Source of the DNA: a virus
Strand: one strand, 5' to 3'
Virus genome (UHGV): UHGV-0178511
Length of the DNA: 35,205 nt
Part shown: positions 30,345-35,205 of the stretch, in pieces
How the letters are laid out: each line of letters starts with the position of its first letter
How positions within the stretch are numbered: the first letter of the stretch is position 1
Notes under the pieces: generated by a model
Told to the model about the DNA's origin: nothing
Database searches by the model: none
What the model saw: the letters and a program-made list of their open reading frames with translations, nothing else
Translations under genes and position numbers: made by a program

Positions 30345-33113
30345 ATGGCTAATTACCGTGATTTGTTAGAGCAGGCTGGCGCACGTTACGGTGTGCCAGA
30401 AGGGTTGATGACTGCACTGGGTGCCAAGGAGTCTTCTTACAACCCTGCCGCAGTAAGCTCCGCCGGGGCTGTAGGATTGACTCAGGTCATGCCTGGGACA
30501 TGGCGTGATATGGGTTATACCGATGAGCAAATGCAAAACCCCGAATATCAGGCTGACGCTGGCGCGCGCTATCTGGCAAAGATGTACCAGCAGTTTGGTA
30601 ACTGGCGTGATGCTCTTCAGGCTTATCACGACGGTCCCGGCAACGTTATGAAGGCAAAGCGTGGTGAATATACGCCAGGACCTGAAGGCCGCGGTTACGT
30701 TGATGATCGCTTTGCTCAATGGGCGGGTGACCCGGTGACAGACTCAACAGTCGAACAGCGCGCCACCTCTGCAAAGGTACATCCTCAGCAAGACCCTAAC
30801 AACCCGTTTGCACAACTGGAAGCACAGTCATCCGAACAAGTATCGGCATCAGGTGTGCAGTCAGACCCAAATAATCCATTTGCTCAGATTGAGCAGCAGG
30901 CAGCCAGTCAGCAGCCACCTCAACCCGTAAGTTCTGTCGCACCGAAACCTGTTCAGCAACAAACAGTTAATCAGGCCAATAATGAACCAGCACGTGAAGA
31001 ACCATCATTGATGCAACAAGCTGGCGATTGGCTCACAGGTGGTCAAAGTGCAGGGCAAATTACAGAGCAGGCTGGTCGTGGTCTGGTAAACATACCATTT
31101 GACGTATTGCAGGGTGGCGCAAGTCTGATTAATGCAATCAGCCAGGGGCTTGGTGGGCCAAAAGTATTGGATGATGTCTATCGTCCAGTCGACCGACCGA
31201 CAGATCCTTACGCGCAAGCTGGAGAGTCAATAGGCGGTTATCTTGTTCCTGGAGCAGGTGTAACTGGAAACATGGTCATTGGTTCTCTCGCTGACGCGGC
31301 GAATCAACGGGGTGATTTTGCCGAAAATGCCGCTATTAATGCCGGACTTAACATTGCTACGCATGGCCTGATAAATGGCGTTACCCATGGTGTTCGTGGT
31401 GCATCAAATATAATTAGTGGCAATAAAACATCTGCACAGAGAGCGACCACTGCGGCAACAGAAACATCACCATTCTCCGGTACTGCGCCAACAGAAACAT
31501 CACCATTCTCCGGTGATGCCGCTGCAGCAACAAATCCTGCGGTTCATGCCGCAGAGGCAAGAGCAGCACAAGGTGTACCAATGACGCCTGCGACGAGGGA
31601 CCCAGAGGAGGTCGTCCGCACAGTAGCAGCACAAAAAAGGCCAAATCTCGCTTCATCGCTTGATGAACTAGATATCAATCCTCAGGCTGAAGTTCTGGAG
31701 TCTGCTGAAAGGCTTAATGTTGATTCATTACTCCCTTCACACTTTTCCGGGAACGAGCAATACAAGGCAGTTGAGCAAGCAATCAAGTCCCGTGCGGGTT
31801 CCGCTCTACGGGTGCAGGAAAATGAAGCAATCAGGCAACTAGCACAGGGCGCGGGGGAGATAATTGATCGCGTTTCCGGTGCAAAAGATGCTCTTGGTAT
31901 GAGCGACAAGTTTATTGATACGATCAATGGAAGAATGTCTGCGCTGATGAAACGAAGCGACCAGCTTTATCGCAATGTTGAAAAGGCGATGCCTGCAGGT
32001 GCAAAAATTGATGCGCCATCAACAAGGTCAATGCTCAAACAGGTGGCAGAAGATCTTGGCGGGATGAAAAACCTTGACCCTATTGAAAAGAGAGTCTTTC
32101 GGGCAGTTAATCCAGGCAAGAACGGCGCATTAACTTATGCAAATCTCAATAAGCAACGACGACTTGTTGGTGATGCACTTCATAAGAATTCTGGACCATA
32201 TAAAGATGCTGATCGCGCTGCTTTATCGAGGCTTTACGGTTCGCTCGCCGATGATCAAAAGGCGGCGCTGTCAGAGACAAATGCATTACGTGATTTTGAA
32301 GTTGCTCAGAGGCTTGTTCAGATGCGAAAAAGCATGGAAGAGCAAATGATTAATCTAACTGGCAGAACGCTGAACGGTGATGTTTCTCGCAAAGCAACTA
32401 CAGCACTACAGGCAATGTCGAAAGGCGATGCCAAAGGATTTCGTGAATTGATGCAAAACACGCCGTCCAGGAAGCTAAGAACCGAGCTACTGGGAACAGG
32501 TCTTCGGGATATGCTTTCGAACGGAAAACGTGGCGCTGATTTTAATCCTGCAGGGTTTGCTGACTGGTATCAAAACATGTTAGCAAACGGGCAGATGCGC
32601 AATCTTGCCCGACATTTACCAAAAGAGACTATGTCAGGTCTGAACGATGTATATAAGGTCGCAAAGGCTATCAAAGATGCAAAATCTTACGAGATAACTA
32701 CAGGAAGACTAAACGAGTTCGTCAAACGGTTTAATCGCGTCACTGCGGCAAATGAATTTGTTGCTAACCATGCCCAACGCATTGGCACTGCGGTTGGTTC
32801 AACTGTGTCAGGACCGTTCAGTGCAGTAGGTGCTGTTGCTGGGTCAGAAATTGGGGCAAAAGTCGCCAGCAAAATCAGGGCGATGGGCGGCGCTGAATCA
32901 ATTGAATCTGCAGAAAAGCTAATTAGCTCACCAGAATTCCAGAAAGCAGCAAGGCTGGCAGTAAAACAAGCACCAGAAAGCATCGTTGATACAACTGTAA
33001 GACGCTCTTCTGCTTGGCGCTCGTTTTACAACTCACTTCCAGAATCAGATAAGAAAACCATATCAAGGCTAGGCATCATGTACTGGATGAACAGTGATGA
33101 TAACCAGAAGTAA
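30345..33113 (+). CDS. Large ejection protein with N-terminal lytic transglycosylase (SLT) domain (P22 gene 16 position)
   Basis: 922 aa; SLT motifs [27 protein letters not shown] in the first ~120 aa; internal peptide repeats. Confidence 0.8.
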
Positions 33114-33130
33114 CGGAAAGCCACGGATGG

Positions 33131-33391
33131 TTAGCTGCTGTCTTTTTTATATAGCTCTTTGAGAGTATCAAAGACAATTTTCTTAACCATATCAGATTGT
33201 TGTTCTGCCATACGCTCTGCATCGTCAATGTAAACTGATGTAGAGCTTTGTTTATCCAATGATTCTTCAATCGCTGCAATTATCTCTGAGTTCAGCGACC
33301 TGTTATTCATCTTCGCACGCAGCTTAATTTTCGCGTGGAGTTCATGCGGAAGTCTCAAGTGAAACTGCGCCTCGTCGTATTTGCTGTACAT
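33131..33391 (-). CDS. mnt: Mnt-like ribbon-helix-helix repressor
   Basis: From the internal Met: FHLRLPHELHAKIKLRAKMNNRSLNSEIIAAIEESL...DDAERMAEQQSDMVKKIVFDTLKELYKK parallels P22 Mnt FNFRMPMEVREKLKFRAEANGRSMNSELLQIVQDAL...NDAERLADEQSELVKKMVFDTLKDLYKK. Confidence 0.8.
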   Translation of the reverse strand: MYSKYDEAQFHLRLPHELHAKIKLRAKMNNRSLNSEIIAAIEESLDKQSSTSVYIDDAERMAEQQSDMVKKIVFDTLKELYKKDSS

Positions 33392-33512
33392 CCTTGATGC
33401 CTCACCAGTTGGGTGGAATGGCATCGTAACCTACTGGATAAATACTCAATAGTACCATTTCGGTATGCAATCACATCATGGTTGCATCATATCATTCGTC
33501 TGGAGCAATGAA
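33392..33512. promoter_or_regulatory. Divergent mnt/tailspike intergenic region with candidate operator palindrome
   Basis: ATGCAA-N11-TTGCAT inverted repeat at 33465-33487, followed by TATCAT (-10-like) and GGAG RBS before the tailspike ATG. Confidence 0.4.
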
Positions 33513-35205
33513 ATGTCAGATATCACCGCAAATGTTGTGGTAAGCATGCCTTCGCAACTCTTCACTATGGCTCGTTCTTTTAAAGCCGTAGCCAATGGCA
33601 AAATTTATATCGGTAAAATTGACACTGACCCGGTAAATCCAGAAAACCAGATTCAGGTTTATGTGGAAAACGAAGACGGTTCTCACGTTCCTGTTTCGCA
33701 ACCAATCATCATTAACGCTGCTGGTTACCCTGTATATAACGGACAGATTGCCAAGTTCGTAACTGTGCAAGGCCATTCTATGGCTGTTTATGATGCATAC
33801 GGTGCGCAGCAGTTCTATTTTCCGAATGTGCTAAAGTATGATCCAGATCAGTTTAAGGGCAATCTCCTGAGCGAAGATCACTCACTTGGCGACTCTCTAG
33901 TCATGCATAACCCACAGTTTGTCGATAGCACATCGACCATTCTCTCAAAAAAGCTAACTATCGACCTGAGGACGCTTACAGACTACGGGTTTGCTGAGGG
34001 AAACACCGGTGCTCAGAACAAAGCTGCATTTCAGAAGGCTATTGATGATGCTACGTTGCCAACTGAGATTGTTATACCAGAGGGGGCGTTCATTGTTGAC
34101 CCTGGTATTACGATTAAGAATACTGTCACCATGATACGAGGTGCTGGCGCATATCAGTCCAGAATTTTCTCTACGGGTACAGCGGCACCGATAATCACGC
34201 AACAAGATGGGGTAATTACGTTCTGCGAGTTCAGGGACTTTGGTCTTGACGGAAATGGCTACGCAGCTAACGGCATCAGTCTTACTGAAGCCAACCACAT
34301 TAAAATAGAAAATATTGACGTGGTTAATACTAATAACAACGCAATATTAGTTAACGGTTACTCCATTGACATCATTGGGTGCCGGTTGTTTCAAAACGCC
34401 GGTAACGGTATTAATGTTGGTGGTTACTGCAATAATATTAATATAATCAACAGCCGTATCTATGGTAACGGAGCCGGTGGAGTTTTACTTACGCCAGCTT
34501 ACGCTGAGGGCGGTATGAGCGTCAGAGTTAATGGCAACAATATAGAGCAAAATAAGTTCTACGGACTTTTGGCTTACGGGGTTAAAGGCCTTAACCTTGA
34601 TGATAACTATTGGGAACGCAACGGTGAGATTGGTTACCAGTATAGTGTACCTGAGTCTATTACAGTACGTGCGGATATCCACCTTATCGCGAACAATTTT
34701 ACATTAATTCCTGACCTTTCAAAAATTAATGATACCGTATCTATTCGCGGGAATCAGCAGACCGCGATTGGCTACGCCAGCGCGCTACCTAACCAAGACG
34801 GATTTATTTTCACGAACTATGCGAAAAACCTGACGATTGAAAATAATCAGTTATTAGACGCATCGAAAGTGAATAATTTATTAGCAATGTACCACAATAA
34901 TCTTTCGTCCAAAGTTACTGACAGGCTATATCTTGCCAACAACACAGTGAACTCCATCGGATACGTTGGTAGTTATGACCCGGCGACACAAAACCCTGAC
35001 ACTGCGCATTTAATAGATATTGCGAACAGAGAGTTAACTGCTAACTATCTTGATCGAAATATGTTGCTCTGGACTGCGGCATCTGGAACTACAGGAACAT
35101 TGATAAAAACTCAAAACATCTATGCTGGTGGATTTGCCCCTATATTTCCAGACACCTGTTATCACTTAACCCATTACTGGCCTGCTGCCGCAGATATTCC
35201 CGTGG
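33513..35205 (+). CDS. Tailspike protein, 3'-truncated: P22 gp9-like N-terminal head-binding domain plus non-P22 parallel beta-helix receptor-binding domain
   Basis: N-terminus [59 protein letters not shown] matches P22 gp9; remainder has beta-helix repeats ([51 protein letters not shown]). No stop in window; last 25 codons lie in the terminal inverted repeat. Confidence 0.9.
35128..35204. repeat. Terminal inverted repeat, right copy (exact reverse complement of 1-77)
   Basis: 77/77 identity by manual reverse complement; base 35205 (g) is beyond what can be compared. Confidence 0.9.

Follow-up and report, generated by a model that had tools for sequence, protein, structure and literature searches.

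Tailspikes of the P22-like phages share a common plan, i.e., an adaptor, then a beta-helix, then a C-terminal domain, as is seen with P22 gp9, Sf6 gp14, HK620 gp9, and the CUS-3 endosialidase. What these four proteins target are, respectively, the Salmonella O-antigen, the Shigella flexneri O-antigen, E. coli O18A1, and K1 polysialic acid. That tailspike receptor-binding bodies are exchanged among phages as modules is textbook.

The system that is closest to the one considered here comes from prophages of STEC, i.e., of E. coli that make Shiga toxin. Prophages from STEC serogroups, of the genera Lederbergvirus and Uetakevirus, have been mined for receptor-binding proteins (PMC10408124, Virol J 2023), and Table S1 of that study places two of those proteins, RM10386_Prophage_RBP (Lederbergvirus, NZ_CP028126.1) and E2865_Prophage_RBP (Uetakevirus), within a single O26 subtype, its members linked by horizontal transfer. 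The threshold employed for that subtype was at least 30% identity at 60% or more coverage versus the subtype representative. Subsequently the RM10386 tailspike (I3U_RS19900) had its C-terminal region joined to the N-terminus of CBA120 TSP3 (PMC12737597, Viruses 2025), with the resulting chimeric CBA120 phage giving rise to an O26-specific luciferase signal, i.e., one reflecting DNA delivery, along with neither signal on off-target strains nor plaques. Cleavage of the O26 antigen by this tailspike is not demonstrated in either paper. A figure legend of the latter study cites I3U_RS19900 as the source, whereas its Table 2 provides WP_038987731.1, and RefSeq now lists WP_001280420.1 at I3U_RS19900. 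This mismatch in accessions leaves a small doubt as to the RM10386 copy employed, but the O26 conclusion does not depend on it, as the bodies of the two copies are essentially the same.

The DNA considered here, the ‘window’, is the whole of a 35,205-nucleotide stretch presented as virus genome UHGV-0178511. Within it, positions 33513-35129 are from the tailspike gene of an E. coli prophage that is P22-like (Lederbergvirus), and make up codons 1-539 of that gene. Very probably this is an O26-type tailspike gene which has been interrupted by an insertion sequence (IS) and which most likely is now a pseudogene. The features upon which that description is based are as follows.

33131..33424, minus strand: Mnt/Arc-type ribbon-helix-helix repressor gene, the only remnant of immI (Repressor_Mnt, E 3.3e-14; Arc, E 3.9e-14)
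33513..33851, plus strand: tailspike codons 1-113, head-binding (tail-adaptor) domain of the P22 type, from Pfam and from identity to P22 gp9 and Sf6 gp14
33852..34007, plus strand: tailspike codons 114-165, linker or neck plus beta-helix cap, holding recombination breakpoints, from alignments
34008..35129, plus strand: tailspike codons 166-539, receptor-binding body of the O26 subtype, formed as a right-handed parallel beta-helix and ending early, at codon 539
35130..35205, no strand assigned: first ~76 nt of an IS2-like, IS3-family element, its terminal inverted repeat included, from alignment

The tailspike gene is found at the end of a virion module consisting of, in order, terminase, portal, scaffold, coat, gp4, gp10, needle, gp14, gp7, gp20, gp16-SLT, mnt, and tailspike. 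The gp16 of the window is a 922-residue protein fused to a lytic transglycosylase domain, and between these ejection-protein genes and the tailspike sits the mnt-like gene, which is called as 86 residues in the identical neighbours L003-L006. The early region supplies YqaJ and RecT recombination genes, sieB, a CI-type repressor, a DnaB-type helicase, and an antiterminator Q gene.

A first-pass annotation of the window had proposed that only the first ~110 residues of this tailspike resemble P22 gp9, with the remainder being a different right-handed beta-helix, and both of these proposals have held up. Pfam's Head_binding domain (PF09008) covers residues 1-113, with all 113 profile positions aligned (E 1.4e-67), while in a sequence search of the PDB the P22 gp9 structures align solely with residues 1-115. 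Identity over the head-binding domain is 74.6% to P22 gp9 (residues 2-115 of the latter) and 92% to Sf6 gp14. At the level of DNA, the corresponding stretch (33513..33851) is 83-94% identical to HK620, Sf6, CUS-3, IME10, and N7, with the likeness restricted to that stretch; epsilon34 and other phages similarly match over only the first ~340 bases of the gene. Many E. coli P22-like prophages are 96-97% identical to the window, with that likeness too stopping at ~33855, i.e., at the end of the head-binding domain. What is held in common with HK620, Sf6, and CUS-3, that is, is the head-binding domain alone, other than that Sf6 gp14, following its strong match over that domain, displays a weak similarity extending to residue 256.

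Beyond the adaptor, Pfam's Beta_helix domain (PF13229) is found at residues 221-326 (E 7e-10), and AlphaFold2, as applied to the intact tailspike as a monomer with an 18-sequence alignment (mean pLDDT 74), predicts with pLDDT above 90 a beta-helix running from residues ~150 to 500. The same model places a C-terminal beta-sandwich at residues ~520-645, but is poor for the head-binding domain as well as for the final 50 residues. Foldseek returns a probability of 1.00 to the tailspikes of Sf6, P22, CBA120, and Klebsiella phages, with the PDB matches being generic throughout, i.e., to the beta-helices of tailspikes, depolymerases, and AlgE4-type epimerases, which beyond the adaptor display 8-16% identity. 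The joining of a P22-type adaptor to a different beta-helix is real and far beyond chance, and from that joining follows a glycan specificity other than that of P22. As neither Foldseek nor the PDB sequence search yielded a close solved structure for the body, no catalytic chemistry or residues can be assigned to it. Five acidic residues of the helix (D286, E345, E368, E372, and D388) nonetheless are conserved across the family, and may be viewed as putative catalytic residues, i.e., as candidates based on that conservation.

Among the properties expected of a P22-type tailspike, the head-binding domain, the central beta-helix, and the position at the end of the virion module thus are all present. 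A complete ORF with a C-terminal domain, by contrast, is lacking here but is seen with the progenitor allele, as represented by a Logan contig (L006). That contig is 100% identical to the window over positions 33100-35129 and carries an uninterrupted gene of 707 codons, with genes for an acyltransferase and an integrase coming next, and then yfdC. Intact alleles of this tailspike are 707 or 708 codons long, and the allele occurs on 59 contigs of the protein collection.

The body itself is not new. Upon direct comparison, 536 of the 539 native residues (99.4%) are identical to RM10386 I3U_RS19900, with the intact progenitor differing from the RM10386 protein at just three of 707 residues (A20S, D364A, and Q376P). 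Versus RM10386_Prophage_RBP, the window's 99.4% identity extends over 539 of 707 residues, i.e., 76% coverage, which is beyond what is demanded for inclusion in the O26 subtype. The expectation that exchange of the body would have resulted in a specificity unlike that of P22 is therefore borne out, since this body belongs to a subtype directed at the E. coli O26 O-antigen rather than at a Salmonella O-antigen. The first-pass annotation had itself indicated that strong full-length identity to a characterised tailspike of known specificity would render the combination ordinary, and with 99.4% identity to just such a tailspike the finding is ordinary. This tailspike was known before, and its specificity for O26 has been put to the test, with the body having been both catalogued and used to re-target a reporter phage.

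It might instead be supposed that what this body targets is not O26 but some other glycan, e.g., a capsule or colanic acid, with the link to O26 being an outcome of clonal prophage spread. Most carriers do in fact belong to one STEC O26:H11 lineage, and for that reason the association with O26 is weak when taken by itself. In addition, the re-targeted phage produced no plaques on O26 (PMC12737597), and there is a weak, partial match (E 8e-27) to phrog_8280, which is described as a ‘tail spike protein with colanic acid degradation activity’. That match was judged to be too partial to allow assignment of a colanic acid substrate, however, with the best PHROG match, and the sole full-length one, being instead to phrog_8846, a family without assigned function. 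A search with the tailspike against NCBIfam returned no family. The signal from the chimeric phage was, moreover, specific to O26, and zero on off-target strains (PMC12737597), and the same body is found in two unrelated genera of prophages of O26 hosts.

The body is found as well in a strain unrelated to the STEC lineage. This is FDN-24, a non-STEC chicken isolate with a genome of 4.8 Mb, which holds a 100%-identical allele along with ‘O26 family’ wzx and wzy, as so named by RefSeq. The O-antigen cluster of that strain also holds rfbBDAC and a set of fnlA, wbjC, and wecB, a gene content that fits the O26 repeat unit, which is made up of L-Rha, L-FucNAc, and GlcNAc. Strain RM10386 is named as O26 in its own record, and the source records of the 873-residue homologues considered further below name E. 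coli O26:H11 or O26. A target other than O26 consequently is highly improbable. As the window consists of prophage DNA only, this typing of hosts is of other carriers, but the presence of the tailspike hints at an E. coli of serogroup O26, or a descendant of one, as the host of the window’s prophage.

Were the phage intact, its tailspike would be expected to act as a homotrimer, with its head-binding domain (residues 1-113) plugging into the tail hub. The beta-helix body (residues ~150-500) would bind repeats of the O26 O-antigen, most likely cleaving them, with that cleavage supplying the virion with access to the outer membrane, while the C-terminal beta-sandwich plus tail (residues ~520-707) would complete and also stabilise the trimer. 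Adsorption to O26 bacteria and delivery of DNA into them are as described in the literature, with formation of the trimer and enzymatic cleavage of O26, along with its chemistry, steps that we infer. Insertion of an IS2-like element following codon 539 would then have separated or removed the last 168 codons, leaving a short tail that is encoded by the IS.

The evidence for that insertion is found at the very end of the window. The tailspike ORF begins with an ATG at 33513, on the plus strand, and is open through the window’s final base, just as would be observed were the gene intact and its ORF shortened only because the window stops there. To that idea, however, next to no probability can be given. 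Following ...GCTGGT, the intact allele continues as AATTATTCATTC whereas the window continues as GGATTTGCCCCTATATTTCCAGACACC, with the two splitting exactly at 35129/35130, and from 35130 onward no intact allele matches. What is present there instead is an IS terminus reading TGGATTTGCC..., which is base-precise at the join other than for an ambiguity of 1 nt, as T35129 is common to the tailspike and to the IS. An annotated IS3-family element (NZ_CP123260; L012) has an end to which the 76 nt of 35130-35205 are 100% identical, with identity to IS2 being ~91%. Among complete E. coli genomes, 105 match the tailspike body, at 99.9-100%, and in all 105 of those the match stops at 35129. It is this alignment of the window with the intact allele and with the IS terminus that, unless the window’s sequence is itself in error, refutes the window’s end as the sole cause of the shortened ORF.

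The first-pass annotation had taken the full 564-codon ORF to be tailspike. The native portion instead stops at codon 539, i.e., at position 35129, with residues 540-564 encoded by the IS, as the sequence found past 35129 is IS terminus and those codons are thus read-through into the element. If the IS is the same as the L012 copy, then the fused frame continues for 56 codons past codon 539 before reaching a stop. In L012 the transposase is annotated as antisense to the window, and here it would therefore be located on the minus strand, past the window’s end. As the window reaches only 76 nt into the IS, one junction is covered. The transposase genes with their programmed frameshift, the second inverted repeat, the other junction with its short target-site duplication, and, if still present, the last 168 codons would all be past the window’s end.

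A different concern is that the joining of tailspike to IS could be an artefact, i.e., of assembly or of a chimeric read at the end of a contig, with the real gene intact. The window does end inside of a multi-copy repeat, as is typical of the ends of short-read contigs, with the terminal stretch of the IS matching 9,616 places across 3,733 E. coli genomes, annotated there as IS3-family or IS2 transposase elements. The exact tailspike-IS junction is, in addition, absent from the complete E. coli genomes of the collection, nor is the predicted 595-residue IS-fusion product found in the protein collection, so that the insertion rests on one sequence. Many of the ‘partial’ homologues are also plain contig breaks within the same region. 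An artefactual junction nevertheless is quite improbable, as the join is base-precise and at the exact terminus of an IS, which is what true transposition gives, and as real insertions of IS2 and of ISSen4-like elements are seen within this same portion of the tailspike gene in other, independent assemblies.

That the insertion is harmful to the tailspike is suggested by what is lost. Residues 540-707, or 168 codons, are strongly conserved across both adaptors and genera, with a conservation of 0.65-0.67 versus 0.69 for the helix (as a majority fraction among 18 diverse homologues), and include the near-invariant residues D549, D557, W574, W606, W669, and W688. The C-terminal part of the P22 tailspike is required for trimer assembly. 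From that requirement in combination with the conservation, we infer that loss of function is the most likely outcome. The window’s copy, by its sequence, is then most likely a pseudogene within a defective prophage, because the insertion takes away the conserved C-terminal beta-sandwich, and such a prophage most likely cannot make infectious, spike-bearing particles. The earlier suggestion of a probable polysaccharide target for this phage that differs from that of P22 stands, therefore, with regard to the subtype of the body, which does differ, but not with regard to the phage, as with an interruption following codon 539 a working spike is very unlikely.

Alternatively, the truncated protein might still be made and might retain some function, whether as binding to O26, its cleavage, or incorporation into virions. 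The cut falls after the confidently predicted helix, keeping the putative groove as well as D286, E345, E368, and D388, and the frame remains open into the IS, as noted. The strong conservation of the lost residues, along with the need for the equivalent part in P22 trimers, argues against such retention, which we consider unlikely.

Disruption of this gene is not unique to the window. At least three other independent IS insertions are found in other assemblies, at codons 553-589 of the tailspike gene. One of these (P0056/L013) displays a canonical IS2 left end following codon 553, in the opposite orientation, and two others display an ISSen4-like IS3-family end following codons 573 (P0048/L014) and 589 (P0047). 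Other lesions in the tailspike gene are seen as well (P0050, P0064, and P0040). By contrast, a series of ‘partial’ homologues of 538-569 residues was rejected as representing biological truncations, since their ends are of native sequence located at the ends of contigs. Those breaks likely occur because the Lederberg-type and Uetake-type copies of the gene are 100% identical in nucleotide sequence over residues 541-630.

Including the window’s own, there are then at least four independent insertions within about 150 bp, i.e., IS2-like (codon 539), IS2 (codon 553), and ISSen4-like (codons 573 and 589). Such clustering could be a consequence of an insertion hot spot, of selection, or instead of ascertainment. 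That the 3' third of this gene serves in lysogens as a recurrent target of IS3-family elements, due to a hot spot or due to selection against an enzyme that attacks the lysogen’s own O26, is a speculative and rather doubtful proposition. Were selection nonetheless to be responsible, then the prophage would be locked in place but with its O-antigen acyltransferase kept.

There are practical consequences as well. With regard to annotation, the ORF should be entered as a tailspike pseudogene of the O26 type, disrupted by an IS, rather than as a new depolymerase. With regard to the mining of prophage tailspikes for diagnostics, candidate genes should be checked both for interruptions by IS elements and for contig breaks stemming from a near-identical Uetakevirus copy.

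How, then, does this locus compare with its relatives? With P22, Sf6, HK620, and CUS-3, what is shared is the plan and the adaptor, the head-binding domains of the latter three being 88-94% identical in nucleotide sequence to the window. The bodies of all four are unrelated to that of the window in sequence, with structural matches that are generic (10-26% identity, TM 0.2-0.35). A search of the phage collection with residues 120-539 found no characterised isolate carrying this body, and just one phage isolate, the Lederbergvirus N7 (MH717096), carrying a related one. The N7 tail protein possesses the same head-binding domain along with a neck that is 100% identical up to approximately residues 150-180, beyond which nucleotide identity falls to ~60%. 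As its body is ~58% identical at the protein level, N7 represents a sister subtype. Within a deep protein search, the 707-residue form was found at 98-100% identity, whereas more distant relatives, at 46-85% identity, display further adaptors, including a T7-tail-fibre N-terminus, in forms of 719-974 residues, some of which are from Citrobacter and from a Budviciaceae bacterium.

A substantially greater similarity is seen with the Uetakevirus (epsilon15/phiV10-like) tailspike of O26:H11 strains, which is an 873-residue protein (e.g., P0004/P0031) corresponding to E2865_Prophage_RBP of PMC10408124. Its body is 96-100% identical to that of the Lederbergvirus type in nucleotide sequence, from residue ~180 to ~690, and the same O26 specificity is predicted. 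Two such copies (L007/L008) are 97.9% identical in nucleotide sequence to the window’s body (34008..35129), and in the deep protein search the 873-residue proteins displayed 93-94% protein identity across the whole of the body. The N-terminal adaptor is instead wholly different, i.e., Tail_spike_N of Pfam (PF18668), at ~280 residues, and the gene is found in an epsilon15-like prophage, where it is followed by gtrA and a lysis cassette (holins, GH19 endolysin). The breakpoint between the Lederberg-type and Uetake-type copies is at about residues 150-165, with the two diverged before that point. To judge from these alignments, the body is one that is exchanged horizontally, being found nearly identically on an epsilon15-like (Uetakevirus) adaptor within the same O26 strains.

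Closest of all is the tailspike of the RM10386 prophage (NZ_CP028126.1, I3U_RS19900, WP_001280420.1), which has the same adaptor, the same body, and the same location following an mnt-like gene. The surrounding prophages are not the same, however. That is, the gp16-SLT protein of the window is 922 residues in length versus a 614-residue protein in RM10386, and with ejection-protein genes differing in this manner the prophage backbones are mosaic. In intact copies of the RM10386 type, the tailspike gene is followed by the acyltransferase gene, intS, and argW, whereas the copy found in the window is broken, after codon 539, by an IS2-like element.

The 3′ portion of the tailspike gene is a place of repeated interruption. 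Between codons 539 and 589, that is, there are at least four independent insertions of IS3-family elements, each found in a different assembly, as follows:

Window 35129/35130, after codon 539: IS2-like element, window copy
After codon 553: IS2, contig L013 4659-4713 (protein P0056)
After codons 573 and 589: ISSen4-like element, contig L014 4720-4750 (protein P0048) and protein P0047

Other lesions are seen as well: among homologues P0050, P0064, and P0040, foreign sequence forms the tail after codon 561, the reading frame ends in a premature stop after codon 545, and 40 aa are missing through an in-frame deletion. The clustering of the insertions may reflect a hot spot, selection, or instead ascertainment. 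As a separate observation, the 9 bases AACATCTAT (window 35115-35123) precede the IS terminus at an offset of 6 nt, and they precede the same IS by 6 nt again at an unrelated insertion site in strain YZLc4-1 (L012 1601-1609), a match which may be due to chance or to a target-site preference.

The same gene also may have exchanged sequence between phage types. The intact Lederbergvirus-type copy (L006 9169-11292; part of the window concerned, 33971-35129) and a Uetakevirus-type copy (L007 8001-10622) are 100% identical at the nucleotide level over two blocks, aa 391-480 and 541-630, and residues D364 and Q376 of the window allele are those of the Uetakevirus copy rather than those of the RM10386 Lederbergvirus copy. 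Together these sequence identities suggest gene conversion between co-resident Lederbergvirus-type and Uetakevirus-type prophages. It is likely also because of these identical blocks that many draft assemblies break inside the tailspike gene. For the RM10386 donor tailspike itself, PMC12737597 gives two identifiers, I3U_RS19900 in the legend of Figure 1 and WP_038987731.1 in Table 2; I3U_RS19900 in present RefSeq leads to WP_001280420.1.

More broadly, the receptor-binding body belongs to a family (33-85% identity) that is joined to at least five distinct N-terminal adaptors (P0043, P0045, P0046, P0069, P0072, P0074, P0076-P0078, P0084), with Citrobacter sedlakii and a Budviciaceae bacterium among the sources. 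The adaptors include:

P22 head-binding domain
epsilon15-type PF18668
'MATTPTN...' type
T7 tail-fibre N-terminus (PF03906)
842-974-aa forms

In intact prophages, from which the segment lying past the IS and outside of the window is known, an Acyl_transf_3 family gene (L001 7848-8990; L006 11363-12505; L011 1292-2434) comes after the tailspike gene, with intS and then tRNA-Arg beyond it. The Acyl_transf_3 product probably is an O-antigen O-acetyltransferase serving in lysogenic conversion and superinfection exclusion.

Upstream of the tailspike gene are found:

30345-33113, +: 922-aa ejection protein, N-terminal lytic transglycosylase (SLT) domain plus P22 gp16
33114-33512: immI region, one Mnt/Arc-type gene only

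The ejection protein contains short tandem peptide repeats (DPNNPFAQ and TETSPFSG, each twice). RM10386 instead possesses at this position a differing, 614-aa protein, and the prophage backbone is thus a mosaic that surrounds an mnt-tailspike module common to both. The window's immI region lacks the arc and ant genes that the 2013C-3277 and N7 versions (L001, L002) possess, and other relatives carry there an HNH endonuclease gene or different inserts (L003).
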